This document shows, one piece after another, positions 1-18,942 of a stretch of 64,000 nucleotides of DNA (the first letter of the stretch is position 1; the number at the start of each line of letters is the position of its first letter). The notes beneath the pieces are model-generated. The model did no database searches. It was given only the letters and a program-made list of their open reading frames with translations, and was not told the origin of the DNA. Source of the stretch: an uncultured Nitrososphaerota archaeon (GTDB taxonomy: Archaea > Thermoproteota > Nitrososphaeria > Nitrososphaerales > Gagatemarchaeaceae); the NCBI GenBank assembly GCA_963703285.1, contig OY969807.1:1408001-1472000 (forward strand). Reading direction: 5' to 3'. The position numbers and the translations under genes were made by a program.

Positions 1-2277
1 GTTCTCCCTCTGCGTGGTCAGGGCCGAGGAGGCCCGTCCGATTGTGGAGTACATCTCCTGCACGTACTCGACCGCCGGGTACCCCGCGACGAAGTCTAGC
101 CGCTCCACGCCGTCCTGTATGCGCTCGGTCTTGACGATCTTGATGAGGCCGACCTCCCCGGTCGTCCTGGTGTGGGTTCCTCCGCAGGCCTGGATGTCCC
201 AGTCCGAGATGCTGACTATCCTGAGCTTCGCCGAGGGGACGACGCCGCCCTGGAAGATCCGGAAGCCGTACGTCTCCTCGGCGACCCTCCTCGGCACGCC
301 GGTTATCGTGACCGGAAGGTTCTTCATCACAATGTCGTTGGCCACGTCCTCGATCTTCCGGACCTCCTTCTCCGTGAGGTGTGCGAAGTGGGTGATGTCG
401 AGCCTGCCGTAATCCGCCTCCTTGAACGCGGAGTGTTGCCAGACCCAGGGGCCGAGGACCTGCCGGGAGGCTCCGTTCAGGATGTGCGTCGCGGTATGGA
501 TGCGCTTGATCCTCTGCCTCCTGACAGAGTCAACCTCTCCGTGGACGTTCGAACCGACGGCCGGGAGATCCCCCGCGATCTTGTGCAGGACCACGGTTCC
601 GTACTTGATTGCGTCTTCCACTTTCATTCCGTCTATGGTTCCGTGGTCCGGTTCCTGCCCACCGCCCCGCGGGAAGAACGCGGTCTGGTCGAGCGCGACG
701 AAGCCGCCCTCGAAGGTCTTCAGAACCCGAGCATCGAACCGGAACGTGTCAGGTTCCTCGTAGTAGAGCAGGCGGGTGTCAGGGACGTCCGCGACGTCGA
801 ACCTCGGGCCCTTCTCCTCCTCCTTCTGGAGGATGTGTTTGGAGACGACGCGCTGGTAGAAATCGTCGGGGATGGCGACCTTCAGGCCCGCCTGGACGAG
901 CTGCTCCGGCGTTATGCCGTCGGAGTCGTACAGCTTCACCAGGTCGTCCGTGCCAAGCTCCCTCTTCGAGCTGGAGAGCGAGGAGATAGTCTTTGACACC
1001 CGTTCCATCGTCGAGCCGTAGCGGGCCTCTTCCACGTCCAGCACCTCCGAGACGTCGCCCCTGTGCTGCTCGAGCTCGGGGAACATCCCAGAGAGCTGGT
1101 CTATGTGCCAATTGATGACGTCGTGGAGGTCGAACTTGAAGCCGTAGCGCTGGACGAACGACTGCGCCCGCCTGAAGACGACCCGCAGGTTGTATCCGCC
1201 GCCCACGTTACTGGGCAGGAGCCCGTCGGCGATCCCGAAGAGGAGGGTCCTCGAGTGGTCCGCGATGGCGTAGAAGGCTTCTAGCGGAGCGAGTTTCTCG
1301 GTAAGGTCCGAGACCGGCACCCCGAGCTCCCTCGCTATCATTCCCCTCGCCTCCGAGAGGTTGGGGAAGTCGTCGACGTTCATCGTCCCCGCGACGCGGG
1401 AGTAGCGGAGGAAGAGGTCGTGGTCATACTCGAAGGGTGAGGCCTCCTTCATCCGCTTGAGGACGGGCGCGAACGCTACGTCGTACGAGGTCGGAGTCCC
1501 CTGCGTGATCCAGGCCAGTCTCTCGAGTCCGGAACCCATGTCGATGACCTTCTCCTTCATCTCCGTGAAGGACGACGGGCTGCCCTCGAAGGCGGTGAAG
1601 ACGGCGTTCCCCAGTTCGAGACCCCGGGCGAAGTAGTCGAGACAGTACCCGAAGGCGCCGTACCCCACCCAGACGCCCTCGATGAATGACAGTTCCTCTT
1701 CCGGTATGCCTAGCACCTTAGTCAGCAGGTCGAAATCGAGATCGATGCACCTGTCCTTCCAGTATCCCTCCTTGTTCGCCAGCGCCGTCTGCCCAATCAT
1801 GCAGAAGGACGAGTTGTGCTTCCCGTTCACCCCGACGGTCGGCAGGTCGTTGAACCTCAGGCACATCTGCGGGACGACGAGAGGGTTCGCGGGGAGCTCG
1901 AAGATGACCTTGCCCCCCTCTATCCGCTGGAAGTCGATGATCGAGGCCACGGTGAAGTAGAGGTCGGGCCTCCACCGGGCGACCACAGGATACCGGGGGA
2001 CGATGGTGTGGCCGTTGTTGCGGAAGAACTCCTCCACCTTCCTCCAGGTGCCGACGTAGTCCAGCCTGGTCTTGGTCGGTGGGCTCCCGATGAAGGTGTA
2101 GGGCGAGCAGGGCTGGTCGTCGCACCTCGTGGCCCCGGGCCTGAGCGTCCAGAAGTGCTTCCCGCAGCTTTCGCACTTCTTCCGGACGAAGCCCCTGCGC
2201 TTGAAGAGGTCCACCATGTAGTACTTCTCGTAGTCCTTCGAGAACCTCTCCTGGAGCACGGCCTTGTCGCCCGCCAT
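1..2277 (-). CDS. alaS: Alanine--tRNA ligase, archaeal type (runs off window start)
   Basis: Manual translation MAGDKAVLQERFSKDYEKYY..CESCGKHFW..VARWRPDLYFTVASIIDFQR..NPLVVPQMCLRFNDL..IDMGSGLER..HTATHIVL..QYPCGGTH; missing from the ORF track because the stop lies outside the window. Confidence 0.95.
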   Translation of the reverse strand, partial: MAGDKAVLQERFSKDYEKYYMVDLFKRRGFVRKKCESCGKHFWTLRPGATRCDDQPCSPYTFIGSPPTKTRLDYVGTWRKVEEFFRNNGHTIVPRYPVVARWRPDLYFTVASIIDFQRIEGGKVIFELPANPLVVPQMCLRFNDLPTVGVNGKHNSSFCMIGQTALANKEGYWKDRCIDLDFDLLTKVLGIPEEELSFIEGVWVGYGAFGYCLDYFARGLELGNAVFTAFEGSPSSFTEMKEKVIDMGSGLERLAWITQGTPTSYDVAFAPVLKRMKEASPFEYDHDLFLRYSRVAGTMNVDDFPNLSEARGMIARELGVPVSDLTEKLAPLEAFYAIADHSRTLLFGIADGLLPSNVGGGYNLRVVFRRAQSFVQRYGFKFDLHDVINWHIDQLSGMFPELEQHRGDVSEVLDVEEARYGSTMERVSKTISSLSSSKRELGTDDLVKLYDSDGITPEQLVQAGLKVAIPDDFYQRVVSKHILQKEEEKGPRFDVADVPDTRLLYYEEPDTFRFDARVLKTFEGGFVALDQTAFFPRGGGQEPDHGTIDGMKVEDAIKYGTVVLHKIAGDLPAVGSNVHGEVDSVRRQRIKRIHTATHILNGASRQVLGPWVWQHSAFKEADYGRLDITHFAHLTEKEVRKIEDVANDIVMKNLPVTITGVPRRVAEETYGFRIFQGGVVPSAKLRIVSISDWDIQACGGTHTRTTGEVGLIKIVKTERIQDGVERLDFVAGYPAVEYVQEMYSTIGRASSALTTQREN

Positions 2278-2430
2278 CAGAGCACCTTGCCGGTCACCCT
2301 CCCGAATCGGTAAATAAAGTAGGAGATGCTGCGTCGCGCGGAAGCCAGCTCTCTTCGGGCGCGCGCCTGGTTTTGAAGAGGAGACCTCGAAAACTATAAA
2401 AGCGGTTGGGGGATGGCGGGCTTTTGCAAA

Positions 2431-2742
2431 ATGACCGACTCTTACATGTATGCCGCTCTTCTGCTTCACAAGGCTGGCAAGCCCATTAACGAGGATAACC
2501 TGACAGGCGTGGTCAAGGCCGCTGGAGTGGAGGTCGACCAGGTGAAGGTGAAGGCCCTGGCTTCTGCCCTCAGCGAGATCAACATAGACGATGCCCTGAA
2601 GAGCGCCTCCGCGATGGCGGTGGCGGCCCCGGCGGCAGCGGCGGCACCCGCAGCTGGTGCGGTCAAGGCGGAGGAGAAGCCGAAGGAAGAGGAGAAGAAG
2701 GAAGAGGAAGCGCTGGCGGGTCTGGCTTCCCTATTCGGCTAA
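2431..2742 (+). CDS. rpl12: 50S ribosomal protein P1/L12
   Basis: [13 protein letters not shown], Ala-rich hinge, [14 protein letters not shown]-terminus. Confidence 0.97.
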
Positions 2743-2831
2743 GAACGGCACCATCGTCCAAAGACAGCGTACTGGCTCTCCATGAGGGGCGCCTCCCTAG
2801 AACTACAGAGAATGTTGTCCAGGAGCTGGGC

Positions 2832-3707
2832 CTACGCGTAGCCCTTTTCCTTGGCCTTGTCGAGGACCGCATTCGCCTCGGCCTCCGCCTTCGCAAGGAT
2901 GACGGGCGCCGTCTCCGGGGTGAGTTCTCCCACCTCGACGGCCAGCGAGAACGCCTCGCGGTACGCCCGGGCGATTATATCGGGGGCGGTGTCCGGTGTG
3001 ACGTAGCCGATGTATATGGCCAGGCCCCTTGAGGAGGCGAAGCCCGAGAGCAGGCTCTCTCTGTACTTCTCCAGGTCGATGGCGACCACGTCGGCCGCGT
3101 AGATTAGGCCGTCCTCGTAGGCGAGCGCGATGGACAGCCCCGCACGGATGGGCTTGATTCCGAGCTTCGAGAGAAGGCTCGCGAGCTTCGGGGTTATGGC
3201 GGTGCCCGCCTTCGCGGCGACGGAGTCCTTGATTATCCAGATGCTCCCGGACTCGATCTTCGTCGGGATCCCGGCCTCCCTGAACTCACTGAGCACGGGG
3301 CCGGCGGGCTGGCCGGTGTTGCCGGCTGGAACGGTGATGTCGGCGGGAGCGACGTCTCCCACCCTCGCCGCAAGGCTGACCCGGTTCTTCTCCAGGAGGA
3401 GGTATACCTTGAACGGGTCGAGGTTCGAGAAGATTAACGCGTTCTGGCCCGTTAGGTACTTGAGCAGTTCGTCGGCGTTCTTTATCCCGGCCCTCTTCAG
3501 CGCGAGCTTCGCGAGGTTGTTCTTGACCACGACTATCTCCGCGTTGCCGCGGAGGACCTTCCTCACGGCCATCAGCTGCGCAGAGCGGACCTTGGAGAGC
3601 TGGGTGACGACTATGACGGGGTACTTCTGCGATAGCTTTGCGATCTTGTCCACGGTGGAGAGCTTCTTCTCACTGTACTCCCGCTGGACCTGCGCCTGCT
3701 GGCTCAT
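2832..3707 (-). CDS. rplP0: 50S ribosomal protein L10/P0
   Basis: VVKNNLAKLAL, APADITVPAGNTGQPAGP; start at MSQQAQ. Confidence 0.95.
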   Translation of the reverse strand: MSQQAQVQREYSEKKLSTVDKIAKLSQKYPVIVVTQLSKVRSAQLMAVRKVLRGNAEIVVVKNNLAKLALKRAGIKNADELLKYLTGQNALIFSNLDPFKVYLLLEKNRVSLAARVGDVAPADITVPAGNTGQPAGPVLSEFREAGIPTKIESGSIWIIKDSVAAKAGTAITPKLASLLSKLGIKPIRAGLSIALAYEDGLIYAADVVAIDLEKYRESLLSGFASSRGLAIYIGYVTPDTAPDIIARAYREAFSLAVEVGELTPETAPVILAKAEAEANAVLDKAKEKGYA

Positions 3708-4357
3708 GCTTCGCTTACCTTGCTCCTCACGGGCTTGCCCATGGTCGTCTTCACTATCACGGCCCTGATGTTCCTGTCGCCGTTGGGCAGCTTCTTCTGG
3801 ACCGCCTGGACCATCGCAAGGATGTTGTCGGCGAGGTCGGTGTCCGAGAGCTTCCTGTCTCCCACCTTCGCGGCCACTGCGAGAGCCGCCCTGCTGCGGA
3901 CCCTCACGGCGGTCCTCGTCCGGCTTATCATCGCCTCGATGGGCGCGTTTGGCGGGACGGGGGTCGGTATCTTGCCCTTCGGGCCGAGCGAGGTGCCGAG
4001 GATCTTGCCTATCCTGGGCATCAGCGCGGTGTCTGCCAGGAAGAAGTCGTACTGCCTCGCGAGCTTCTTTGCCTCCTTCTTGTTGCCCGCGAAGTTCTCG
4101 AGCTGGGAAGGCTCGAGCGTCCCCTCGACGCCCGCGTTCTTCGCCCGGAGCAGGAGGTCTCCGGAGCCGATGAAGCATATCGTTGACTTGTGGGAGCCGG
4201 GGTGGGGCAGGTAGACGGTCTCGTTGATGTTCAGGTCCGTCTTCTTGGGATCGACGTCCTTGAAGGTGATTACGGACTCGAAAGATTCGGGGAACTTCCT
4301 CTCCTTCGACTCCTTCCCCTTCTTGACGAGCTCCGCAAGTTGAACGTTTGTAAGCAA
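3704..4357 (-). CDS. rpl1: 50S ribosomal protein L1
   Basis: RKFPESFE, LGPKGKIP, VKTTMGKPV. Confidence 0.97.
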   Translation of the reverse strand: MLTNVQLAELVKKGKESKERKFPESFESVITFKDVDPKKTDLNINETVYLPHPGSHKSTICFIGSGDLLLRAKNAGVEGTLEPSQLENFAGNKKEAKKLARQYDFFLADTALMPRIGKILGTSLGPKGKIPTPVPPNAPIEAMISRTRTAVRVRSRAALAVAAKVGDRKLSDTDLADNILAMVQAVQKKLPNGDRNIRAVIVKTTMGKPVRSKVSEA

Positions 4358-4396
4358 GTGAGTTCCCGAAAGCCAGACCGCGCCAGAGGCCAGTAA

Positions 4397-5168
4397 TTAA
4401 AAGAGTTTCGATGGCTCGGCTCCCAGGGCGCGCCCCACGGGATCCCCGACCCGGAGGACTCCCTCGCCGATGGCGGTGCACATTACCCCCAGGTTGCTGC
4501 CGTGGACCTTCTGAATCGTCTCGAGTATAAGCTGGTCCTCCTCGATCCCGGGCTGCCTCATCGTCGTCACCTTACACCGGACGTTGGGCTTCTCGACGCG
4601 AACGCGAAGGGGCCCCATCTCCAGCTCGCTGCCGACCCAGCCGTCCTCCGGGAATCCGTCCAGGTCCCGCCCGGTGTCGACCACGATGTTGGGACGGAAC
4701 CGCCTTGCCTGGAAGTCGCCTCCGGGATGGGCGTCCCGCAAGCGTCCGAGCGACGCGGTGGTGATGAGGTGCAGCGTCCTGCCCGACTTGGCGCGAGACT
4801 CCGCGAACCTGGGGTACCTCACGAGCTCCAGTTCTCCGCCGAGGGCCGCGCTGATGTGAGAGTTCACCTCAGGGTCGCTGGAGGTGCAGACCGTGCGCCC
4901 TGAACTCTCGATCGAGACCTCGTGCACTCCCTCCGGGGGGCCGGAGAATCCTCGCCGAGAGCTCGAGCATAGTCGGACGACCGAGGGACTCCCCCCAAGA
5001 GAACCGGTAGGACTTCGGGTCGAGGACCCTCTTGGACGCGACCTCGCGGATGGCGTACAGGTGGTCCCCGGATATTCCGGTGGCCAGGACCCTGCTCTCC
5101 TCAAGCCTCTCCCCCTGGAGTCCGTTTACAGGATAGCGCCAAATCTCGGCGACCCGTCCAAGGGTCAT
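4397..5168 (-). pseudogene. MOSC-domain protein with an apparent +1 frameshift near 4950
   Basis: N-terminus IWRYPVNGLQGE..GISGDHLYAI is in one frame; C-terminus LHLITTASL..RRFRPNIVV..RCKVTT..LRVGD is in another. Removing one base at AGG-A-TTC restores a single ORF. Confidence 0.8.
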
Positions 5169-5192
5169 CGCAGGGGCTCGTCGTTGTCCGGG

Positions 5193-5693
5193 CTATTTCT
5201 TCGCTTCGAACGCCGCGATGGCCTCGTCCCACTTGCCCTCTTCGATCTGCTTTGTGAACTGCCGCGGGTCCGTGTCCTCGACCTTGAGGCCCATGCTGAC
5301 GCAGCTCCCGACGACTTCCTTCACAGAGGACTTGATCGACTTGGCGTACGAGTCGTTGATCTTAATCCTGGCGATGCCGAGGACCTTGTCGAAGGAGACG
5401 TTCCCGACGAAGTCGACGTTCGGCTTTCCCGAGCCCTTGGGGATGGCGGCTTCCTTCACGAGGAGAGCGGAGGTGGTGGGGGTCCCCACGGAGACCGTGA
5501 ACTTCTTGGTCTCCTGGTCGACCTCGACCTTCACCGGGACCTTCATCCCCTTGAAGTCCGCGGTCACCCTGTTGATCTCGTTGACGACCTGCAGCACGTT
5601 GACCCCGAGCGGCCCGATTGCGGGCCCGAGGGGCGCCCCGGCGGAGGCCTCGCCGCCCGTCACCAGTACGGAGATAATCTTCTTCTCGCCCAT
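5193..5693 (-). CDS. rpl11: 50S ribosomal protein L11
   Basis: GGEASAGAPLGPAIGPLG, VVGSCVSMG. Confidence 0.97.
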   Translation of the reverse strand: MGEKKIISVLVTGGEASAGAPLGPAIGPLGVNVLQVVNEINRVTADFKGMKVPVKVEVDQETKKFTVSVGTPTTSALLVKEAAIPKGSGKPNVDFVGNVSFDKVLGIARIKINDSYAKSIKSSVKEVVGSCVSMGLKVEDTDPRQFTKQIEEGKWDEAIAAFEAKK

Positions 5694-5780
5694 AAGCAGC
5701 ACTTGTTGGAATTGGGCGCTTTCTGGCAGCGTATCTAAAGCTTTTCCGGCGGTTCCGGCGGGTGAAGGTCGGGAGGGAGG

Positions 5781-5830
5781 CTAGGCCGGCTGCTTCGCGG
5801 CCTCTGGCTTGGCCTTCTCGACAATCTTGA
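5781..5830 (-). other. Stranded copy of the spt5 3' end (..KIVEKAKPEAAKQPA*)
   Basis: Reads (c)TC AAG ATT GTC GAG AAG GCC AAG CCA GAG GCC GCG AAG CAG CCG GCC TAG and aligns with the current Spt5 tail LKIISKGTTEAKK. Confidence 0.7.
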
Positions 5831-6016
5831 CTAGCCTGTGGCAGGGTCGTACCAGCGGGCTCCCGAGTAGTACAGCCCGGTGGACTCTTCCGTCGGCTTG
5901 GTAGTGTATTCGAACGCAGCCGTCCCCGACGCGCCATATGTTGGCCCGTAGGGCCTGTAGTCCGAGCTAAACAGCGTCGACTCCGAGGAGCTCGTCACAA
6001 GCCTGACGCTCCCCAA
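5831..6016 (-). pseudogene. RHS repeat-associated core domain fragment
   Basis: LGSVRLVT..DYRPYG..FEYTTKP..STGLYYSGARWYDPATG matches the RHS core consensus; truncated at both ends. Confidence 0.85.
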
Positions 6017-6022
6017 GCGACG

Positions 6023-6532
6023 CTAATAAGTCGACGCTTCGTTCTTAATCTCTGCATTCTTTTTGGCTTCTGTCGTTCCTTTCGAAATTATTTTCAAGTA
6101 GGCGGCGTCAAGGACAACGGGCATCTGGTAGGGCGTGTCCAGGAGGATCACAGTGACCTCCTGCTTGGCCGTCTCTATCCTGACTATCTTGGCGCGCATC
6201 GTCTTGAAGGGACCTGCCACTATCTCGACGATGTCGTTGTCGGAGAGCTCGGCGACCATGGACTTCGTGACCAGGAACTTCTCGATGTCTGAGAACTGCA
6301 TCATGCCGGGGATCTTGCTGCGGACGTGCTTGAACCCCTGGATGCTCTCGTCCACGACCTGCGAGTTGGGCGCCTCGAAGAGGACGTATCCCTTCCACGT
6401 GTCGAGTGCGAGTATGGAATAGATGGGTTTCTTCTTTTGCATAGCCTTGTTCGCCACGAAGGTCGCGACCGTCCTTTCCTGTCCGCCGGTGGTCTTGACC
6501 GGATAGATGGAGCTCTGTCTCTGTTCTGACAA
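6023..6532 (-). CDS. spt5: Transcription elongation factor Spt5 (NusG family)
   Basis: VKTTGGQE, KGYVLFEA, KOW motif IVEIVAGPFK. Confidence 0.97.
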   Translation of the reverse strand: MSEQRQSSIYPVKTTGGQERTVATFVANKAMQKKKPIYSILALDTWKGYVLFEAPNSQVVDESIQGFKHVRSKIPGMMQFSDIEKFLVTKSMVAELSDNDIVEIVAGPFKTMRAKIVRIETAKQEVTVILLDTPYQMPVVLDAAYLKIISKGTTEAKKNAEIKNEASTY

Positions 6533-6547
6533 GATTGCGGGCCTCGT

Positions 6548-6724
6548 CTAGCCGAAGATGCTCGGCAGCACAGTCGAGATGAACTTGATCAGGAATCCCA
6601 TGGTCCCGACCACGGCGACGCCGAGGAGGACGAGCTTGAGGTAGAGCATGAACTGCTCCTTGTCGCTCTTCTTGGAGAGCCTGAGAACCGACCCCATGGC
6701 GGCGAGGAAATCGCGAAGTGTCAA
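6548..6724 (-). CDS. secE: Protein translocase SecE / Sec61-gamma
   Basis: VLRLSKKSDKEQF plus TM segment ..VGTMGFLIK; directly upstream of spt5. Confidence 0.9.
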   Translation of the reverse strand: MTLRDFLAAMGSVLRLSKKSDKEQFMLYLKLVLLGVAVVGTMGFLIKFISTVLPSIFG

Positions 6725-6872
6725 ACCTGTAACCTTCTCAGGACGTACCACAGGTGGCTGTTTATAAAAGTACCCAACGGTTCCCACCCTCGAAGAGTCT
6801 GGGACGGTACGACGAGCCCTTCGGTGTTCAAACGCTTTTCTCCCCACAGGACGGGCCACAGGGAGCCTGCTC

Positions 6873-7700
6873 ATGACCCCAGAGGGTTCCCCTGCGACCG
6901 TCCTGATCACGTCGACGAAGGACGAGGCCTCGGTCACCATAGCCAAGGGCCTTGTAAGGAACCATGGGTTCGAGTCGACCGAGATCGAGCTCATGGGGAG
7001 GCCGGTCCTCCAGATGGGGTCGCTCCTTCTCGTGACCATCGACACGGAGATGATCGAGCCGCCCGACCTCGATGAGTACTTCAACCCCCGGGCCTACGTC
7101 TTCCTCTCCAGGCACTACGCGGAGTCCGGGATACCATCCCTCACGGTCCACACGACGGGCAACTTCGGAGACGAGGCCGTGCTCGGAGGGAGGCCAAGGG
7201 AGGTCGGATGGGTGAACCCGGACCTGCAGAAGAATTACCTGCAGGCGCTGAGCAGGCGCAAGGGCGAGCTCGAGGGGTACGAGATAACGATAGAGGCGAC
7301 CCACCACGGGCCTACGTCTCTCAAGAGGCCCGTCCTATTCGTGGAGCTGGGCTCCTCCGAGAAGAACTGGAGGGACGAGAGGGCCGGGGCGGTCATCGGA
7401 GACGCGCTGGTGGAGGCCCTGACGGAGGGGAGGTCGTGGGAGAAGGTGGCGCTCGCGTTCGGGGGGTCCCACTACCCCGCCAAGTTCAACAGTCTCCTGC
7501 TCGAGACCGACTTCGCCCTCTCCTCCATCGTCCCGAAGCACAGCCTGGCGGGGGTCGACGAAGCCATGTTCGGCCAGATAATCCAGAAGACCACGAGGTT
7601 CCCCCGCAACGTGGCGGTCGACTGGAAGGGGCTTGGCCCAAACAAGGAGAGAATCACCTCCCTCGCCAAGCAGTTCGCGCTGGAAATCGTGAGGGTCTAG
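6873..7700 (+). CDS. dtdA: D-aminoacyl-tRNA deacylase (DTD2)
   Basis: FLSRH, LTVHTTGN, EATHHGP, FVELGS, GGSHY. Confidence 0.95.
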   Translation: MTPEGSPATVLITSTKDEASVTIAKGLVRNHGFESTEIELMGRPVLQMGSLLLVTIDTEMIEPPDLDEYFNPRAYVFLSRHYAESGIPSLTVHTTGNFGDEAVLGGRPREVGWVNPDLQKNYLQALSRRKGELEGYEITIEATHHGPTSLKRPVLFVELGSSEKNWRDERAGAVIGDALVEALTEGRSWEKVALAFGGSHYPAKFNSLLLETDFALSSIVPKHSLAGVDEAMFGQIIQKTTRFPRNVAVDWKGLGPNKERITSLAKQFALEIVRV

Positions 7701-7717
7701 GACGGCGGCGCCCGGGC

Positions 7718-8623
7718 TCAGCCCATCAGGGCGTCCACGAACGAGCCGACGTCGAACCTCTTCAGGTCCTTGTAGTCCTGCCCCACCCCGAGGTAGAGGA
7801 TGGGCCGTCCCGTCGTGTAAGCGATGGAGAGCGCGGCGCCCCCCCTCGTGTCTGCGTCCGTCTTCGTCAGTATCGCGCCGTCGAAGCCGGTGTACTTATT
7901 GAAGAGCTGGGCCTGGGAGATGGCGTCGTTGCCGGCCAGCGAGTCGCCGATGAAGATCTTGAAGTCGGGGTTGACGACCCTGACAATCTTACCCATCTCC
8001 TCCATGAGGTTCTGGTTGGTCTGCATCCTCCCTGCGGTGTCGACGAGGAGGACGTCGACGTGGTGCGCCTTGGCGTAGAGGACCCCGTCCCTCGCGACAG
8101 CGGCCGGGTCCGCCCCGTACCTCTGCGCTATCACCTTGGCGGAGACCCTGCCTGCATGCTCGGTGAGCTGCTCTATGGCCCCGGCCCTGTGGGTGTCCCC
8201 GGCGGCGACCACGACGGAGTAACCCGCCTGCTTGAGGAGATAGGCGAACTTGGCCACCGTCGTCGTCTTGCCCGTCCCGTTGATCCCGAGGAAGAGTATC
8301 GTGAAGGGCTCGCCCCTCTTCTTCTTCTCGTCGATGAGCCCGAAAAGGTCGACTGACCCCGCCTTCGCGAAGATCTCGGTAATCGACCTGCGGAGCCCCT
8401 CCTGAACGAGGGATGCCGTCTCCTTCGAGCGCTCGACGGACAGCCCGGCCATCTGGGACTTCAGGGACGCGCCGATGCTGTCGACGACCTCCTGGGCGAC
8501 GTCGCTCTCCAGGAGCGTGAGCTGGAAGCTGTAGAGCGCTTCGTCGAGTTCCTTCTCCGAGAGCTTCCTCTCGGAGATTACCTTCGTGAGGGACGAAAAG
8601 GCCTGTCTAAGCTTGTCAAACAA
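7718..8623 (-). CDS. ftsY: SRP receptor FtsY
   Basis: GINGTGKTTT, DTAGR, TKTD, GVGQ. Confidence 0.97.
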   Translation of the reverse strand: MFDKLRQAFSSLTKVISERKLSEKELDEALYSFQLTLLESDVAQEVVDSIGASLKSQMAGLSVERSKETASLVQEGLRRSITEIFAKAGSVDLFGLIDEKKKRGEPFTILFLGINGTGKTTTVAKFAYLLKQAGYSVVVAAGDTHRAGAIEQLTEHAGRVSAKVIAQRYGADPAAVARDGVLYAKAHHVDVLLVDTAGRMQTNQNLMEEMGKIVRVVNPDFKIFIGDSLAGNDAISQAQLFNKYTGFDGAILTKTDADTRGGAALSIAYTTGRPILYLGVGQDYKDLKRFDVGSFVDALMG

Positions 8624-8629
8624 CGCCGA

Positions 8630-9046
8630 CTACTGACCCTGTCTGCTCAGTATCGACTGCAGCGCTCTCCGGTCGGACTCGAGCCGCTGCGCTATCTGGT
8701 TGCGCTGCGAGGCTACGGCCCCGAGGTCCTCTTCGAGCTCACCCGTCCGGGCCTCTATGAACTTGACAGCGTCCTCCCTCGTCCTCTCGACGACGACGTT
8801 TGCGCCGATGTTCAGCAGGACCTTGTCGGTCTGAGGGGGAGTTGCGCGGAGAAGTACCCCGCCGCCCACTGGGATGAGCGCCTCCTCCGTGGGGGAGCTG
8901 AGCCCCTTGATCGTGGCGAGGGAGGATTGGCTCTCTATAAGTATCCTCTCGAGGAGGTTCTGGCGGGCAGACATGTCGTTGTAAGTGCTCTCCAGCACCC
9001 TGATCTCCGCAACCAGGTTGTTGACCATCTCCTCGTCTTTGCTCAA
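8630..9046 (-). CDS. pfdA: Prefoldin alpha subunit
   Basis: Coiled coils with LIPVGGG and VLLNIGANVVVE hairpins; conserved position before ftsY. Confidence 0.92.
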   Translation of the reverse strand: MSKDEEMVNNLVAEIRVLESTYNDMSARQNLLERILIESQSSLATIKGLSSPTEEALIPVGGGVLLRATPPQTDKVLLNIGANVVVERTREDAVKFIEARTGELEEDLGAVASQRNQIAQRLESDRRALQSILSRQGQ

Positions 9047-9098
9047 GTCGGATTCCGAGCCACAGCCCGTTCGGACCCTTTTTAATCTTGAGGGTGCG

Positions 9099-9764
9099 TC
9101 AGATGCTCAGGGCCTTTGTTAGGAACATCAGCTCCGGGCCCGTCGTGAGGTCCCCGACGATGGCGTTCGAGGAGTTGGCGACGAGGCCCGAGGTCAGGAA
9201 CGGGATCCCCCCGTTGACGGAGGCGGGGTATGCGTCAACCTTGAAGACGCTTCCCACGTCCTCGACCTGCTTCTCCGTGAGCTTGGGATAAACCGCTGCC
9301 CCGCCGTTGGTCGCCACCATCAGCGCGCCCACCTGGACGTACTCGTCGATTGTCAGGTTCTGGACCTCCACGTCGAGGACGTCCCTCACCTGCGAGACAG
9401 CCTCGTGGTCGAGAATGGGCGAGACCATGGCCCCGTGGTCGTTCGCGGAGACCAGGTTGCCCACGGCGGTGTACTTTGATTTGAACCTCTCGACCCTGAG
9501 GCCCGTCTGGGAGGCGAGCTCCCTGACCTCGTAGTCCTCTACCAGGCGGGAGAGCACGATGCCCTTGTTGTTGAGGGCCATGAGAGGCCCGAGGAGCCTG
9601 GTACCTTCGACCGAGACGAAGACCGGCGAGACGCCCAGGTTCTCGGCGAGCATCCTGGACTTCGTCGACGCGATGCCCTTCGGCGCGAAGAGAAACCTGT
9701 CGTTTGCCCTCAGAAATATCCCTATGTTCGGGCTCCTGTAGACCTCTACCAGGTAGAGACCCAT
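9099..9764 (-). CDS. eif6: Translation initiation factor 6
   Basis: SPNIGIF, AVGNLVSANDHGA, TTGPEL. Confidence 0.95.
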   Translation of the reverse strand: MGLYLVEVYRSPNIGIFLRANDRFLFAPKGIASTKSRMLAENLGVSPVFVSVEGTRLLGPLMALNNKGIVLSRLVEDYEVRELASQTGLRVERFKSKYTAVGNLVSANDHGAMVSPILDHEAVSQVRDVLDVEVQNLTIDEYVQVGALMVATNGGAAVYPKLTEKQVEDVGSVFKVDAYPASVNGGIPFLTSGLVANSSNAIVGDLTTGPELMFLTKALSI

Positions 9765-10046
9765 CTAGGATTGCACTGCTTCAGGCGCCAGACGGACGGA
9801 GACGACCCCGTCCTCGTCGCGCTCCATCTCCAGTCTAATCCTCCTCGGGGGGCTGGTGATGCCGCGGGACCAGATCCGCTCGTTCACTCCTACCTCAATC
9901 TTGACCTCGGTTGCCTTCATGTGCTTGGTCGTGAACTCCCGGATTACTCTTATGGCAACCTTGCTCCTCCTGTACCTAGGCGCCTCGAAGACCCTGCGGA
10001 GGGGCACCATGTAGGTGCGGGTGAGCGGCTCCAGATTAGACGACAT
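9765..10046 (-). CDS. rpl31e: 50S ribosomal protein L31e
   Basis: VNERIWSRGITSPPRRIR. Confidence 0.95.
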   Translation of the reverse strand: MSSNLEPLTRTYMVPLRRVFEAPRYRRSKVAIRVIREFTTKHMKATEVKIEVGVNERIWSRGITSPPRRIRLEMERDEDGVVSVRLAPEAVQS

Positions 10047-10052
10047 TCGCTA

Positions 10053-10211
10053 TCACTTCTGCCTCAGCTTCTGTCTCCGCCAGTCCCTCTGCTTGGGATT
10101 GAACCTGACGGTCCTGTTGGTCTTGATGACGACCCAGGTCGGGACGGGCGAAGCCTGCTTCTGGGCCTTCATGAGACGGTTCTTCTTCGACTTGTCCTTC
10201 ACGCTACCCAT
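10053..10211 (-). CDS. rpl39e: 50S ribosomal protein L39e
   Basis: Manual translation MGSVKDKSKKNRLMKAQKQASPVPTWVVIKTNRTVRFNPKQRDWRRQKL (52 aa, below the ORF cutoff). Confidence 0.95.
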   Translation of the reverse strand: MGSVKDKSKKNRLMKAQKQASPVPTWVVIKTNRTVRFNPKQRDWRRQKLRQK

Positions 10212-10214
10212 GGT

Positions 10215-10499
10215 TCAAATCCTCCTGATTGTGAAATCGCGCTTCTTCGTCTGCAAGGAACCGAGAATCTCCTTCAGCTGGTCGTCGTTTATCACCGTCT
10301 TCAGCTTTCCTGTCGTGGCCATCTGGATGATGTAGTCTTCGATGGTCTGGGCGACCTGTGGCTTGACCATCTTGATGTTGGCTAGACGCTGGCGGGCTTC
10401 GGAGGTCAGCGCCATGCGCATTACGTTCTCCCGGAGGGCTCTCTTCTCCCTGTCTTCCTCCTGGTCTTTTCTTGACTGACTATCCGGCTGTTCGGACAA
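10215..10499 (-). CDS. PDCD5-like DNA-binding protein
   Basis: LTSEARQRLANIKMVKP, INDDQLKEIL. Confidence 0.93.
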   Translation of the reverse strand: MSEQPDSQSRKDQEEDREKRALRENVMRMALTSEARQRLANIKMVKPQVAQTIEDYIIQMATTGKLKTVINDDQLKEILGSLQTKKRDFTIRRI

Positions 10500-10504
10500 A
10501 TCTA

Positions 10505-10960
10505 TCACCCGTATCTTGCTAGCGCAGGAATCTCCTTCGAAAGCTCCTTAAAAACGTCTTTGCTGACCTTGTCGAGCAGGGCGACGCCCTTGGGCGTCAG
10601 GACCCGGCCCTTGTTCCCCTGCTTCGTCACCAGCTCTGCCTGCTCCATGTCCTTGAGTGCGTTCCTGATGATCGAGCCGCCGGAGTCGCGGTGGTGCTTC
10701 GGGTAGTAGGACAGCGCCTTGCTCCCTCCGTACGCGGACTCGAGCTGCTGGAGTCCGACGGGCCCCTGAAGGTAGACCTTCCGGAGCAGGGACGCGGCCC
10801 TCGTGTACCACCAGTCCGCCTGCTGGGGTGGACGTTCCGCGTGGGAGCCTGTCTTGACGAAGGCGGCCCATTGCGGGGGCTCGAGTTCGGGGACCCTCTT
10901 CAGATGCTCCGCTAGGGCTTCGATTAGTCTGTCTGCAGGCACGTCGTGGACGCGGACCAT
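10505..10960 (-). CDS. rps19e: 30S ribosomal protein S19e
   Basis: WAAFVKTG, WWYTRAASLLRK, GRVLTPKG. Confidence 0.97.
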   Translation of the reverse strand: MVRVHDVPADRLIEALAEHLKRVPELEPPQWAAFVKTGSHAERPPQQADWWYTRAASLLRKVYLQGPVGLQQLESAYGGSKALSYYPKHHRDSGGSIIRNALKDMEQAELVTKQGNKGRVLTPKGVALLDKVSKDVFKELSKEIPALARYG

Positions 10961-11003
10961 CTCTTTTCCCGGAGTGAATTCGTCAGCCCGCTCGGCTGGA
11001 TAT

Positions 11004-11310
11004 TTAAGCGTGACTTGACAATTTTTTCCGGTTGACGTAGCCGCAGTCCGCGCAGGTCACCAAGAGCATCCTCGTCCGACCGAGCCTCACCCTCGCGTTG
11101 AGGCCCGGATAGAGGAGGCCCTTGCAACCGTGGCAGAAGAACCTCTTCAACCTCCAGTCGTACCTGACGTTGAACTTGAGCATCACCCGGCGGGCGAGAG
11201 AGGCCTGCGCCTTGGCGAGCTCGAGGTCTCTGGGGGCCGTCTCGACGGCTAGCTCGAATCAGCGCGGCCGCCATCTCTGCGGCCTCTCTCTTCGCCTCCT
11301 TTCTCCTCAC
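11004..11310 (-). CDS. rnp4: RNase P protein Rpp21 with an apparent +1 frameshift near 11258
   Basis: C-terminus FCHGCKGLLYPGLNARVRL..TCADCG; the N-terminus joins in frame if ATTC is read as ATC (LIELAVETAPRDLELAKAQASLARRV). Confidence 0.85.
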
Positions 11311-11364
11311 GCCCGTGCCTCGGGCAGACAAAGAATTAATCGTAGCTGGAAGCCGTCGGGCGAG

Positions 11365-12033
11365 GTGCTCAACCTAGTCATCACCGAAGCCGCCCTCGAG
11401 CTCGTGCCCGAAGAGATACGGCGGCAGGCCTCCGTGGGGAACGACGCGAGGCGGCGGGGGCTCGACCCGTCAGAGTTGCTGCTGGACAGGAGCCTCCATC
11501 ATGCGGCGATGGCCAAGCTGAAGGAGGACTACAAGCGCGGCCGCCCGGACCTCGTCCACCTTACCCTCCTGGGCGTCACGAGTACCCCCCTGTACAGGGC
11601 CGAGGGCGTGAAGGTCTACATCCACACGCGCGACGACGTCGTCCTCGAGTTCAGGGCGGGGACTAGGCCGCCCAAGAGCTACTTCAGGTTCAGGGACCTG
11701 GTGCAGAAGGTGCTGAGAGAGAAGCCGGATTCGGGGCTCATCGCCTATCGCGAGTCCTCGATCCCTCTCCTCCTGAAGAGGATAGGCGCCGACCTCTCGG
11801 TCGGACTGTCAATCCAGGGGAAGCAAATGACGCTCGAGAACCTGGCGCAGCAGCTCGCACGGGCGAGGAACCCTGCGGTGTTGATCGGAGGCTTCCCGAA
11901 GGGGCATTTCACGGTCGAGACGACGAGGGCGCTGGACCTGGTGGCGCGCGTGCACGAGGACTCGCTCGATGCGCACGTCGTGGCCGGTCGGCTGGTCTAT
12001 GAGGTCGAGAAGCTGGTCGGGACTCAACCATAA
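11365..12033 (+). CDS. nep1: 16S rRNA pseudouridine N1-methyltransferase Nep1/Emg1
   Basis: EAALELVP, LLDRSLHH, RGRPDLVH, IGGFPKGHF. Confidence 0.93.
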   Translation: MLNLVITEAALELVPEEIRRQASVGNDARRRGLDPSELLLDRSLHHAAMAKLKEDYKRGRPDLVHLTLLGVTSTPLYRAEGVKVYIHTRDDVVLEFRAGTRPPKSYFRFRDLVQKVLREKPDSGLIAYRESSIPLLLKRIGADLSVGLSIQGKQMTLENLAQQLARARNPAVLIGGFPKGHFTVETTRALDLVARVHEDSLDAHVVAGRLVYEVEKLVGTQP

Positions 12034-12063
12034 AAAGGGGGTTTCTTCTGACCGCGGTCCAAG

Positions 12064-12185
12064 GCGGTCGTCGTCCAGATCACGAAGCGAGGACAATCTG
12101 GTCTAGGACATAAGCCCTCCATTTTTCGTCTGAATCGACGAAAAGGGGCGAGCTTGTAACCTGGGTTCGAATCCCAGCGACCGCA
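12064..12185 (+). tRNA. tRNA-Gly(TCC) with two introns (12079-12096 at 15/16; 12122-12150 at 37/38)
   Basis: Acceptor GCGGTCG/CGACCGC, T-arm CTGGG-TTCGAAT-CCCAG, BHB-like motifs at both introns. Confidence 0.85.
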
Positions 12186-12311
12186 CCTCTTCACCCTCCC
12201 GGCACCGCTCCATCAGATTCATTAATCGATAGTTATGGTCGTCAATCGATGGCCGATGGCGTCTCGCCCGTCTCCGTCCTTTGATCCGAACGAATTGACA
12301 GGCGATGAAAC

Positions 12312-13226
12312 ATGATCGCGACGGAGAGCCTGACGAAGAGGTTTGGTGACACGACGGCCGTCGATGACCTTACCCTTCGAGTGGACGAGGGAGAGGTCTT
12401 CGGGTTCCTCGGGCCGAACGGGGCGGGGAAGACAACCACGGTCCGGATGCTCGCGTGCCTCATCTCGAAGACTAGCGGGCAGGCAACCATCGGCGAATAC
12501 GACACGGGGAAGGACTCGGACCTGCAACAGATACGGAAAATCATCGGGTTCCTGCCAGAGAGCGCAGGCTTCTACGACGAGCTGAGCGCCTACAGGAACC
12601 TAGACTACTACGGGAGGCTTCACGAGTGTGCGGAGGGCCAGAGGAGGGAGCGCATCGAACACTTCCTCAAGATGCTAGGCCTCTGGGAGAAGCGGGATTC
12701 GGCGGCTGGAACCTTCTCGAAGGGGATGAAGCAGAAGCTCGCCATCGCCCGCGCCCTCATCCACGACCCCCAGGTGCTCTTTCTCGACGAGCCCACCGCG
12801 AACCTCGACCCCGAGGCCTCCAAGGCGATGCGGGACTTCATCCTCGAGCTCAAGAAGGAGAAGAGGACGATCTTCCTCAACACGCACAACCTGGACGAGG
12901 CAGAGAAGGTCTGCGACAGGGTGGGGATCCTCAAGACCCGTCTCATCGCAATCGGTGCGACGAAGCAGCTGCTCGAGTCGGTCTGGGGCAGGAAGACGGT
13001 GATTCAGGTCACGAGGGTAACCGAAGCCATCCTTACAGCCGTGAAGAGGCTCGGACCGAGGAGGGTCGAGGTGGAGGGCGACCGGCTGATCATCGACGTC
13101 GTGAACCCGGCCGAGGAGAACCCGTCGCTGGTTGAAGCGGTCGTCGCCTGTGGTGGCCGGGTCCAATCGGTCAGTGAGCTTCTCCCTTCGCTGGAGGATG
13201 TCTACATGCGGAGGGTGCGGGGCTGA
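12312..13226 (+). CDS. ABC transporter ATP-binding protein
   Basis: GPNGAGKTT, FSKGMKQK, FLDEPT. Confidence 0.95.
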   Translation: MIATESLTKRFGDTTAVDDLTLRVDEGEVFGFLGPNGAGKTTTVRMLACLISKTSGQATIGEYDTGKDSDLQQIRKIIGFLPESAGFYDELSAYRNLDYYGRLHECAEGQRRERIEHFLKMLGLWEKRDSAAGTFSKGMKQKLAIARALIHDPQVLFLDEPTANLDPEASKAMRDFILELKKEKRTIFLNTHNLDEAEKVCDRVGILKTRLIAIGATKQLLESVWGRKTVIQVTRVTEAILTAVKRLGPRRVEVEGDRLIIDVVNPAEENPSLVEAVVACGGRVQSVSELLPSLEDVYMRRVRG

Positions 13227-13233
13227 GGAGAAG

Positions 13234-13968
13234 ATGAAGCTCTCCAGAGCATGGACCGTCGCCTCGAACGACTTCGGGGTATTCGCGAGGAAGAAGTACA
13301 CGCTCTACTCTCTGATCGGGCTTCCGGTGGTGTTGTCGGTAGGTCTGCCGATAGTCGTCTGGCTCAACGTCAACAAGACCTCCGTCAGCGACTCAGAGAT
13401 TGGCATCCTGCTCAACGCCTTCTCCTTCCTCTTCGCGATTATGGCGACGCTGGTTCCGACCGTGCTCGCCTCGTACAGCTTCCTCGGCGAGAAGCTCGAG
13501 AGGAGTCTGGAGCCGCTTCTCGCGACCCCTGCGTCGGACGGGGAGCTGCTGCTGGGGAAGTACCTGGCGTCCCTACTCCCTTCGCTGGCCGTGACGTACA
13601 TCGGGGCCGGAATCTTCATGGCGCTCGTTGACGAGGTGACGTACGGGCGTCTCGGGCACCTCTACTTCCCGAACGCGACGATGGAGGCCATCCTGCTGCT
13701 GGCCGTGCCGCTGGCCTGCCTCTTCAGCGTCGAGGCCAACGTCATCATCGCCTCGCTCGTGGGAGACCTCCGCGCCGCGCAGCAGCTCGGGATCCTCGCG
13801 TCCGTCCCCTTCGGGGGTGTCTTCGTACTGGCCGAGACGAACTTCGCGTCCCTCAATCAGACCACCCTGCTGACAATCTCGGTGCTCCTTCTGGCCATCG
13901 ACGTGGTAATGCTGCAGGTGTGCAGAGTCACGTTCCGGCGGGAAGAGATAGTCACAAAGTGGAAGTGA
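13234..13968 (+). CDS. ABC-2 type permease
   Basis: Six TM segments, GEKLERSLEPLLATP. Confidence 0.9.
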   Translation: MKLSRAWTVASNDFGVFARKKYTLYSLIGLPVVLSVGLPIVVWLNVNKTSVSDSEIGILLNAFSFLFAIMATLVPTVLASYSFLGEKLERSLEPLLATPASDGELLLGKYLASLLPSLAVTYIGAGIFMALVDEVTYGRLGHLYFPNATMEAILLLAVPLACLFSVEANVIIASLVGDLRAAQQLGILASVPFGGVFVLAETNFASLNQTTLLTISVLLLAIDVVMLQVCRVTFRREEIVTKWK

Positions 13969-14050
13969 ATTCCCGGGGCGTCACACGCTACAGCAGGAGT
14001 TGCAGGTGCTGATGTTCGGAGGTCAGACCCGGATAGCGTGGCTCCGAGAC

Positions 14051-15127
14051 TCAGGCAACCGTGATCGAGGTGACTTGGAGCAGATACTGGAAGGTCGTCG
14101 TCTGGCCGTCTACAACTTCGCTGCCTGCGATGTTCTCATTGGTCACGAGGGGGGCGCTCGACCCCTGAGGAGTTCCCACGGAGAACGAGAAGGCCGTGAG
14201 CGTAGTTGGTGTGCTGCCACAGTATGTTTCTGTTTCTGGTAGATTGTTGGCTGCGTAGGTGGTGACGGACACCTTGGTCGGCCCGATTGAGACCGTAGAT
14301 GTTCCGGTTGAGTGGAAGAAGTTCGCTGCCGTGTAGGCGTTGATCAAACTGTCAGCCTGGATTTGCAGTGTGAATGCGGCGAAGGCACCGACAATCGACT
14401 CCTGAGCCTCCGAACCGGTGATGTTGTATCCGGCGACGTCAATCGCCACTGCAGTCCCGTCCTTGAGGAGCCACACGGTCTCCATGAGATTCGTGCTCCC
14501 TTCGGCGAGAGTTATCGTAACCTTGTAGGTGGTGGAGCTCACGTAGTCCGTGGCGTACGATTCGACGAAACTGTAGCTCGACGGTGAAGAGGACGAAGAC
14601 CCTGAGGTTGAGCTAGTCCCGTTAGCCTGGATCGACATCGCCGAGTAGGCGCTGAGCAGCGGTATCACGTCTTCTGTTACCGATGTGGAGGTTGAGGAGG
14701 TGGAAACGGTGGAACAAGATGTGGTAGTTGTGGTGGTAGAAGAGGTGGCCGAAGTCGTTGAGGACGATGTTGTTGATGTGGTCGACGAGGTTGTGGTCGT
14801 GCTGCTCGTTGTGGTCTTGGAGCTGGTTGTTGTCGACGTCGTGCTGGTCGTCGGAGGTGCGGTGCTCGAAGTGGTAGTGCTGCTGGTCGTGGTGGGAGGC
14901 GTAGTCGAAGTCGTGCTGGTCGTCGGGGCGGCCGTCGTCGATGTGGTGCTGCTCGTACTGGCGGGCGGTGTGCTGGACGAGGAGGTCGTCGACGGGCTCG
15001 AAGTTGGAGTCGAGGAACTCGAAGACGACAGAGCGACGTATGCGGCGACCCCGCCGATTGCAACGAGAACAATGATGATCCCCGCGATAACAATAGGAGC
15101 AACGCCGCGCTTTGGCTTTATCAGCAC
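14051..15127 (-). CDS. Ser/Thr-rich surface protein with a class III (pilin/archaellin-type) signal peptide
   Basis: KPKRG|VAPIVIAGIIIVLVAIGG N-terminus, long S/T linker, globular C-terminal domain. Confidence 0.75.
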   Translation of the reverse strand: MLIKPKRGVAPIVIAGIIIVLVAIGGVAAYVALSSSSSSTPTSSPSTTSSSSTPPASTSSTTSTTAAPTTSTTSTTPPTTTSSTTTSSTAPPTTSTTSTTTSSKTTTSSTTTTSSTTSTTSSSTTSATSSTTTTTTSCSTVSTSSTSTSVTEDVIPLLSAYSAMSIQANGTSSTSGSSSSSPSSYSFVESYATDYVSSTTYKVTITLAEGSTNLMETVWLLKDGTAVAIDVAGYNITGSEAQESIVGAFAAFTLQIQADSLINAYTAANFFHSTGTSTVSIGPTKVSVTTYAANNLPETETYCGSTPTTLTAFSFSVGTPQGSSAPLVTNENIAGSEVVDGQTTTFQYLLQVTSITVA

Positions 15128-15370
15128 GACATATGGTTTATAACATAAGTATTTAATTTCGTCGGAAGAATCTTGCTCTCTTATCCGGGACGACGCAACT
15201 CTAGTCGGAAACAAATCGCTGGGCGATAAGCGCCTGCCTCGGCCCGTCTACCTACGACGGGAGATTCATGGAAGACTTGCAGGAAAGAGGCTGTGATTGT
15301 GGGACCGTTGCAACTCCAGAATCGCGGTCTACGCAAATCCTGAACAACCGAATCGCATCTCAGGCGAGGG

Positions 15371-15997
15371 CTATTCGTTCGGGCCGAGACCTGCGATTCT
15401 GGAGCTGAGAGACGTCTTGACGCTCTCCCTCCATTCTTCGTCGGTGATCGAGTACATCATGCTGTCTCCCGGGGTCCCATCCTGGCGGATCCGGTGGTTT
15501 CGCAGCCTTCCCTCGAACTTGGCGCCGAGCTTGAGGATGGCCCTCTGCGAGTGCACGTTGTTGCTGTCTGTCTTCAGCTGCACCCTCACGGCGTTCCAGT
15601 CCTCGAACGCGTGTCTCAAGAGCAGGAACTTGCATTCAGGGTTAACGACCGTCCCCCACACCCTCGAGTCGTACCACGTTCCTCCGATTTCGACTCCCCG
15701 CTGTACGGGACGGGCGTCCATGTATCGCGTGCTGCCGAGGACGCTTTGGTCGTCCTTGCTGAAGACGGTGAAAGGATACTCGGTCCCCCGTTCCTGGGCC
15801 TTGAGGGCGAGGTCGATCCACTCCCCCATGCGCTCCTGAGTCCTAGCGTCCATGGACATCCAGGTCCAGTCCGATTCCCGCGCGGCCGCCAGCAGCCGGT
15901 CTGCATGGGAGGGACTGAGAGGCTCCAGACGGACGTGCTTCCCCTCGAGGACGCATGGACCCAAGGCGAGCGGCAATGTGGCCCTCGGGGCAGGCAT
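15371..15997 (-). CDS. GNAT (RimJ/RimL-like) acetyltransferase
   Basis: VRLEPL, VEIGGTW, NVHSQRAILKLGAKFEGRLR. Confidence 0.9.
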   Translation of the reverse strand: MPAPRATLPLALGPCVLEGKHVRLEPLSPSHADRLLAAARESDWTWMSMDARTQERMGEWIDLALKAQERGTEYPFTVFSKDDQSVLGSTRYMDARPVQRGVEIGGTWYDSRVWGTVVNPECKFLLLRHAFEDWNAVRVQLKTDSNNVHSQRAILKLGAKFEGRLRNHRIRQDGTPGDSMMYSITDEEWRESVKTSLSSRIAGLGPNE

Positions 15998-16041
15998 GGC
16001 TTTGATAAATCTGTGGAGAGAGCTATCCTTGGGACGACGAG

Positions 16042-16416: not shown

Positions 16417-16554
16417 GGGGAGGAGTCCCCGCCTTGCCTCGTATAAATCCGACGGGCGGGAAGGTGTAGAGCGTCGCGCGTCCGCAAACCGGCTTCCGGA
16501 GTCGATCAGCCTGTGGCGCTTGCTAAATAGCTACCTCGCGGGACGGAGGAGCCC

Positions 16555-18657: not shown

Positions 18658-18780
18658 CGCCCGGTTCCGTCGAGTCCCAGGGGCTGCAACAAGTCGGGCC
18701 GAGTAGGCGCGCGAAACCTCTTAAGGCTTCTTGGGGCGAAGAAATTCTTAAGTGCGGTGGCCCGGAGCCGGCCCCGAGGT

Positions 18781-18919: not shown

Positions 18920-18942
18920 TCCCCCACGATCCCAGCCTCTCC

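Follow-up and report, generated by a model that had tools for sequence, protein, structure and literature searches.

How does an archaeal spt5 gene come to end in one C-terminus while a second Spt5 end, attached to no gene, lies downstream of it with a piece of an RHS gene between the two? The question arises in a window of 64,000 nucleotides, the whole stretch of DNA analysed here, from a soil Nitrososphaerales archaeon whose genome is a single 2.25-Mb contig with 60.6% GC. The minus strand carries secE, spt5, a 320-nt interval and rpl11, in that order, and the features of this region are given below with the evidence for each in parentheses.

6532..6023, minus strand: whole spt5 open reading frame, 169 amino acids, stop at 6025..6023.
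6098..6532, minus strand: native part of spt5, codons 1-145, with NGN and KOW domains and the end ...VVLDAAY (TIGR00405, Pfam, 91% identity to P0018).
6023..6097, minus strand: replacement Spt5 end LKIISKGTTEAKKNAEIKNEASTY with a TAG stop, of foreign origin (frames, GC, tail profile, alignment A2).
6017..6022, minus strand: joint of the replacement tail and the RHS piece, CGTCGC (read directly from the sequence).
5834..6016, minus strand: RHS gene fragment, last repeat and core model positions 1-43 of 76 (TIGR03696, RHS protein matches).
5831..5833, minus strand: right junction; a TAG ends the RHS frame here, and the host sequence continues from 5830 (frames, A2, contigs).
5782..5831, minus strand: stranded ancestral Spt5 end VKIVEKAKPEAAKQPA with its stop, attached to no gene (live ends of relatives, tail profile).
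5703..5781, minus strand: spacer upstream of rpl11, containing the conserved TATA-like box TTTAGATA (minus strand, ~5732-5739) (alignment A2).
5193..5702, minus strand: rpl11 (ribosomal protein L11), next gene of the conserved secE-spt5-rpl11 cluster (76-96% identity to the genes that follow spt5 in relatives).

The live gene encodes an archaeal Spt5 of the NusG family with NGN and KOW domains. Its product is an equivalog match to TIGR00405 over residues 10-151 (E 1.9e-35, 122 bits, cut-off 69.95), and both Spt5-NGN (PF03439) and KOW (PF00467) are matched in Pfam. Frame 0 of the minus strand reads ...DAAYLKIISKGTTEAKKNAEIKNEASTY up to the stop at 6025..6023 and goes on in the same frame as RRLGSVRLVTSSSESTLFSSDYRPYGPTYGASGTAAFEYTTKPTEESTGLYYSGARWYDPATG and a further stop; past the spt5 stop this frame is open for 63 codons (RRLGSVRLV...GLYYSGARWYDPATG) and is closed by a TAG, one base after which another frame reads VKIVEKAKPEAAKQPA and a stop. 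This second minus-strand frame (...HRLVKIVEKAKPEAAKQPA and its stop) ends at 5782. Read-through or frameshifting linking spt5 to the RHS frame was considered and dropped, there being no evidence to support it. A sequence-only reading of the window had remarked that the spt5 frame turns AT-rich after DAAY, and composition agrees: GC is 0.43 at 6020-6109 and 0.55-0.67 on the flanks, and third-position GC (GC3) is 0.44 over the 24 codons of the new tail against 0.85 in the spt5 body, with values of 0.80 in the RHS piece, 0.88 in the stranded tail and 0.92 in rpl11. Since the tails of GC-rich relatives (GC3 0.54-0.86) are also below their own gene bodies, this contrast is suggestive rather than decisive.

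The spacer upstream of rpl11 is intact after the insertion, and its TATA-like block shows no change across the window and four relatives (alignment A2); rpl11 probably retains its own predicted promoter. A perfect tandem pair, TTCCGGCGG TTCCGGCGG, lies at 5744-5761 between the stranded tail and the TATA-like box. On the other side of rpl11, between it and rpl1, a MOSC-domain gene (4397-5168, minus strand) is broken into two frames that overlap, 4869-5168 holding MOSC_N and 4397-5104 holding MOSC, as the result of either a frameshift in the gene or an indel error in the assembly. A tRNA scan of window positions 1-20000 found none, and an Rfam search of positions 5000-7000 gave no meaningful match.

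The state of the gene before the event was sought in a comparison set of 119 Spt5 relatives. The nearest Spt5 in databases, P0018 (91% identity over 159 residues), also has the unusual YQMPVVLDAAY and ends in LKIVEKAKPEAAKHPA (...KIVEKAKPEAAKHPA); the taxon labels of the nearest relatives are Nitrososphaerales or Thaumarchaeota. Live Spt5 ends of relatives read YLKIVEKAKPEAAK(KE/HPA). In two members of the genus (L016, L017) and two metagenome loci (L064, L066) Spt5 ends in ...KIVEKAKPEAAKKE, and the gene is followed by a 77-nt spacer, which includes the invariant TATA-like block, and then by rpl11. In alignment A2 the DNA of four relatives runs unbroken from GACGCCGCCTATC into TCAAGATAGT at the point where the window has 267 extra nucleotides. 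Because the relatives are uninterrupted here, the insertion site can be placed within 1 nt: the insert occupies 6097..5831 on the minus strand, between Tyr145 and the original Leu146, with one host nucleotide replaced. Inspection of the spt5-rpl11 intervals of close relatives had been suggested as a check, and it did yield empty sites running straight across the insertion point.

The sequence-only reading had also pointed to a GC-rich homologous tail, without a gene, beyond the spt5 stop. Such a tail is present at 5831..5782 and matches the ends of relatives, scoring 26.3 bits against a profile built from 88 distinct relatives' tails; its start, as then read, does not hold, since it is V-K-I-V (GTC AAG ATT GTC) with the original Leu codon altered. 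The tail is intact and almost identical to the live tails of relatives, which suggests that it was displaced recently, and it is the ancestral Spt5 end. At window position 5823, within this tail, the window has A and the contigs of three soil runs have G (plus strand), a difference at what was formerly the third position of an Ile codon. Elsewhere in the genus, one clade (P0002-P0024, L010, L011, L058-L060, L063) has a longer, different Spt5 tail (LKIVQKATGESK...KNKS, 21-22 residues), with spacers of 67-271 nt after spt5 and no detectable stranded tail in them; this form could be due to plain divergence or to a much older tail replacement.

The first 75 nt of the insert complete spt5 and include the last six or so residues of the conserved domain. 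Solved Spt5 chains align with the spt5 product through residue 152-155, and the P. furiosus chain (end ...YVRLISKL) has the motif ISK in common with it; since the alignments to TIGR00405 and the P. furiosus protein extend through residues 151-155, the junction must lie about six residues inside the conserved domain, so that those residues had to be supplied by the incoming DNA. In codon register from the junction, the new and stranded tails are identical at 25 of 48 nt (nine at first, 11 at second and five at third codon positions), a level reached by three of 100,000 shuffles and by 2,559 of ~4.5 million genomic 48-mers; the distribution over codon positions points to diverged coding homologues and not to microhomology. 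Against the tail profile the new tail scores 13.6 bits, which none of 20,000 random and none of 5,000 shuffled peptides reached. Deprived of its first three residues (LKI) it scores only 4.8 bits, reached by ten of the random and 154 of the shuffled peptides (20,000 and 5,000 again). The C-terminal 36 residues had one outside match in 1.84 billion representatives, P0139, a partial Spt5 ending in LKIIQKATSESRTNAEAKKAS, with 65% identity over query residues 1-31 of 36, a span that includes 12 residues upstream of the junction. By these comparisons the new end is a true but diverged Spt5 tail of foreign origin, and the chimeric spt5 presumably works. The proposal that the Spt5 C-terminus had been rewritten is thereby sustained, the live end being a replacement according to the empty sites, the tail profile and the codon register, and no relative ends in LKIISKGTTE.

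Searches for a donor of this tail covered DNA and protein collections. In the DNA of the host genome itself the best non-self match had an E value of 0.185. Of the 401 genomes of the order, 13 (the window's own among them) gave DNA matches at E 0.01 or better; the non-self matches, none of them in an spt5 locus, were 66-67% matches to RHS sequence (G012, G270) or 18-30-nt words in AT-rich genomes. A back-translated pattern of the tail had no match in 185,579 species genomes or in IMG/VR, and with three mismatches allowed it had one non-self match in the 401 genomes (G400), which lies outside spt5, antisense to an ORF for a membrane protein. A protein search restricted to the tail, over 5.8 billion protein clusters, returned only the window's own protein and P0018. 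The new tail was thus carried by no other protein, genome or contig searched.

Beyond the new stop, the RHS-core fragment that the sequence-only reading had placed between the two tails was recovered as ~183 nt at 6016..5834, through TIGR03696 and RHS protein matches. The match to NCBIfam TIGR03696 (E 7e-7) reaches 29.6 bits, below the cut-off of 32.5, and covers model positions 1-43 of 76 only, so that the complete RHS repeat-associated core domain is absent; a Pfam search of the piece gave no family match. The piece has 73-77% identity to three RHS proteins, one of which falls in a cluster that includes a Nitrososphaerales MAG protein of 3,277 aa. At the DNA level its likeness to the RHS gene of this MAG protein (L138) extends from ~6017 to ~5834 and ends at both limits, and RHS relatives of 269, 333, 1325 and 3277 aa (some of them partial or truncated) continue on both sides of it. 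Its reading frame, open from beyond the spt5 stop as far as DPATG, contains no YD-repeat shell; having no start, no C-terminal toxin domain and no immunity gene, it is a pseudogene piece, and both it and the old Spt5 tail are presumably dead relics. No copy that might have served as a template was found elsewhere in the host genome, and neither spt5 nor rpl11 was found near any of 27 RHS loci inspected with up to 10 kb of flank. Several bacterial RHS loci contain this core region repeatedly, at intervals of 2.7-3.3 kb, a pattern that orphan cassettes would be expected to give. The genome has only one other RHS sequence, outside the window and 242 kb off (G000:C1:1656263-1658378), which corresponds to the last ~680 residues of the 3,277-aa relative only, lies in two frames that change near 1657205 and looks like a second RHS relic; the RHS piece is 52-53% identical to it.

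At its outer limits the insert splits the host sequence cleanly, with no overlap and no duplicated core. No direct repeat (att core) was found to flank the 267 nt, and the outer junctions have only CTA in common. The inner joint between tail and RHS piece is marked by the 7-nt word AGCGTCG, which occurs twice within 21 nt, and is bracketed by a 10-nt perfect inverted repeat (6029-6038 / 5973-5982). Confirmation by sequences spanning the junctions, also suggested beforehand, was obtained for one side: the right junction is crossed at 99% identity or more by contigs of runs X1, X2 and X4, which are soil runs of one study and possibly the source sample of the assembly, and the left junction is covered by none, as no contig of the four runs covers 6046-6120. 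The X4 contig links the stranded tail, the RHS piece and the new tail as far as 6045, which is 23-29 nt past the inner joint; a bridge was counted only if a contig extended 31 nt past a joint, and no weight is given to these gaps in coverage.

The boundary between spt5 and rpl11 is variable among relatives. Over 19 species of the genus the distance is -3 nt in three, 51-263 nt in nine, 0.95-1.36 kb in four and 2.4-3.5 kb in three. A like spread is seen in 80 metagenome loci, where the gap is zero or negative in 20, 1-300 nt in 28 and 0.5-2.6 kb in eight, a further nine having no rpl11 within 1-3 kb and 15 a gap that is not resolvable. Of ten loci from other genera, five have the two genes overlapping or abutting, and the rest have gaps of 21, 98, 628 and 649 nt and ~2.2 kb. 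On this evidence the spt5/rpl11 junction is a rearrangement hot spot in this Nitrososphaerales genus. Two genomes (G006, L042:12400-14900, and G017, L043:470-2900) carry a ~1.2-kb tandem duplication with units 72-86% identical, each unit starting 65 to >100 nt inside the end of spt5 and including a gene for a ~370-aa surface protein without a Pfam match. Because the unit begins inside spt5, a second, stranded Spt5 end lies between the copies, ~1.2 kb downstream (KILEKAKQ and a stop in G017, KIVEKVKRPQVENS and a stop in G006). This duplication is old and clearly endogenous; taken with the insert of the window, it shows that breakpoints in the last spt5 codons arose at least twice in the genus, by different routes. 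A scan of 40,172 nt from the 80 metagenome loci gave no convincing stranded tail.

The interval is a 267-nt insertion scar of foreign DNA in the last spt5 codons, apparently recent; the locus is a dead scar in which no mobile element remains. As to its origin, we favour a homology-anchored patch insertion, at a probability of roughly 0.45. In such an event DNA with an spt5 3' end, from another archaeon or an element, would pair with the resident spt5; the left side would be resolved or primed through spt5 homology, at or beside a break, and the right side would be joined illegitimately, leaving a short two-piece patch by the same logic as the displacement of rhs C-terminal tips, at a junction that is rearrangement-prone throughout the genus. 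Such a patch would account for a host sequence that is cleanly split, for an insert that is short and composite and for the word AGCGTCG occurring twice at the inner joint: the target is split at one point with no duplication, and two pieces are found, of 75 and ~183 nt. The empty site with its exact junctions, the homologous tail in exact register, the still intact stranded tail, the differing GC3 of the two pieces, the variable spt5/rpl11 boundary and the lack of an integrase at or near the site also speak for it. The patch, however, needs a foreign spt5-end template in the cell, and no donor was found in the collections searched (own genome, 401 genomes, 185,579 species genomes, IMG/VR and protein sets); the genome holds no other copy of the RHS piece as a template, the microhomology of the outer junctions (CTA) is weak and the left junction lacks independent contig support. 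An incoming replacement end is, moreover, the hallmark of integrase-borne elements, for which the 3' ends of protein genes are common targets in this phylum; this counts against a patch and towards a close rival that we rate somewhat lower: an integrase-borne element with an attP mimicking the spt5 3' end and with RHS cargo, later deleted to 267 nt. The insert does regenerate the gene end and displace the original, as elements that integrate site-specifically at the 3' end of a gene classically do, and the mimic tail would be explained naturally. There are thaumarchaeal precedents, as described in the text of PMC6563490, where 14 of 68 integrated elements occupy the 3'-distal part of a protein gene, att sites as short as 8 bp are known and, in the case of NitEve-E2 in a Zn-finger protein gene, the stop region is replaced by the element's own sequence (Krupovic et al., 2019). 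The GC content of the tail is also below that of the host, like that of the genome's islands, including a tRNA-linked one with an integrase. Against this, no ORF for a recombinase, casposase or other element gene is found inside the 267 nt, and the single PF00589 match of the genome (G000:1627840) is 214 kb from the insert; there is no repeated core, the would-be attL and attR sharing only the CTA noted above in a host sequence split without overlap. At least two deletions would be needed, one starting 6 nt past the new stop and one ending within 1 nt of the displaced tail. With a GC3 of 0.80 the RHS piece is host-like and not island-like, and in view of the 0.44 of the tail the two need not derive from one element. 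Neither the RHS piece nor the new tail matches any spt5 locus in the 19 species of the genus, ten of other genera or the 80 metagenome loci, none of 36 ORFs from the larger inserts is an integrase, and IMG/VR, searched both with one Spt5 protein and with alignment A4, contained no contig encoding an Spt5 relative. The sequence-only reading had held that an RHS-carrying integrative element used spt5 as attB and had predicted sites occupied by an integrase and RHS genes; empty sites were seen, and none occupied by an integrase or RHS gene was found in the 29 genome and 80 metagenome loci (15 of the 80 unresolvable and nine ending before rpl11); for lack of an integrase, a flanking repeat or an occupied relative this claim was not supported.

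A wider version of the integrase model, in which the spt5 3' end is the attachment site of an undescribed family of Nitrososphaerales integrative elements with an Spt5-tail mimic and host-derived cargo (for example, RHS toxin cassettes), the window holding the worn remains of one and the varied spt5/rpl11 inserts of the genus representing older traffic, seems unlikely to us. An ancient tandem duplication spanning the 3' end of spt5 and the downstream gene, with the upstream copy diverged and most of the unit deleted, has its model in G006 and G017, which carry just such an arrangement with a stranded spt5 end ~1.2 kb downstream. We nevertheless consider it very improbable: at the DNA level the tails agree at only 52% of positions and align locally no better than shuffled sequences do, the stranded copy is almost the same as the live tails of relatives, as expected of a recent displacement, the live copy has a different codon composition and the RHS piece has no second copy. 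Least credible of all is an assembly artefact, either a chimeric join or a patch of foreign reads in the single-contig assembly. The uncovered stretch at 6046-6120 and the apparent frameshifts in two other genes (MOSC, 4397-5168, and the RHS relic), which may be indel errors, would fit it, but the right junction is spanned by the X1, X2 and X4 contigs with at least 99% identity, and a random chimera would not keep the frame and give Spt5 a homologous end again.

One analogy is with rhs genes. In the displacement of rhs tips, incoming DNA that is homologous only upstream replaces the 3' end of a gene and the old end is left downstream as an 'orphan'. The window resembles this in that a 3' end is swapped, the old end lies downstream and the RHS piece is the core region that such cassettes retain; it differs in that the displaced gene is spt5 and the RHS piece comes without a variable toxin part or immunity gene. 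Recombination of rhs C-terminal tips with stand-alone cassettes is mentioned in PMC3482391. The thaumarchaeal elements, as far as the text of PMC6563490 describes them (NitEve-E2 in particular), share with the window the phylum, the last codons of a protein gene as target, the in-frame replacement of end and stop, and an empty site visible in relatives; they are whole elements that encode an integrase or casposase and are flanked by att or TSD repeats at least 8 bp long, whereas the window has 267 nt only, no recombinase and no repeat. In genomic islands of tRNA and tmRNA genes, as outlined for Islander (PMC4383910), the island regenerates its target and a displaced fragment marks the far end. 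The window has the same architecture of a regenerated end followed by a displaced end, but the target is a protein gene, the ends are 52% identical and not near-identical, and no island lies between them. The duplication in G006 and G017 matches the window in locus, in a breakpoint in the last spt5 codons and in a stranded tail upstream of rpl11; its units are 72-86% identical, ~1.2 kb long and endogenous, unlike the barely similar tails and short foreign insert of the window.

Replacement of a gene end by incoming DNA is thus a known kind of event, for which spt5, an essential gene, is a previously unlisted target. The sequence-only reading knew of no description of spt5 or nusG as an archaeal attachment site. 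This agrees with literature searches for either gene in that role, which found nothing; spt5 is absent from the targets named in the text of PMC6563490 (all 68 are in its Table S2), and neither Spt5 nor NusG occurs in the passages of PMC8371274 that were consulted. The locus shows that foreign DNA can replace the 3' end even of a gene for an essential and highly conserved transcription factor if the last conserved residues are restored, and it marks the spt5/rpl11 boundary as a rearrangement hot spot in an uncultured soil archaeal lineage. As a dead scar with no active system, it is of value mainly as a well-resolved example of gene-end replacement; were a complete element to be found at the site, spt5 would join the archaeal protein-gene attachment sites.

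Some minor observations concern mobile DNA elsewhere in this genome and at this boundary in relatives. The PF00589 locus (G000:C1:1627138-1636000, outside the window) contains an open frame of 487 codons whose start lies in tRNA-like sequence and which is followed by low-GC DNA (0.44-0.50 at 1631-1635 kb); the locus is probably an integrated element that targets a tRNA gene. The 36 ORFs scanned from the larger spt5-rpl11 inserts include MarR-type regulators, methyltransferases, a redoxin, a TnpB-like protein, a DDE transposase, ChrB, a luciferase-like oxidoreductase and surface proteins without assignment. This cargo differs by lineage (L019-L028, L041, L069-L113), with MarR-type regulators and FkbM and other methyltransferases, and by locus, with the redoxin and TnpB-like genes in L085, the DDE transposase in L024, and ChrB and the luciferase-like oxidoreductase in L096. 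In G022 the interval is occupied by a 2.3-kb stretch of low GC (0.49-0.55) containing ORFs without an assigned function.
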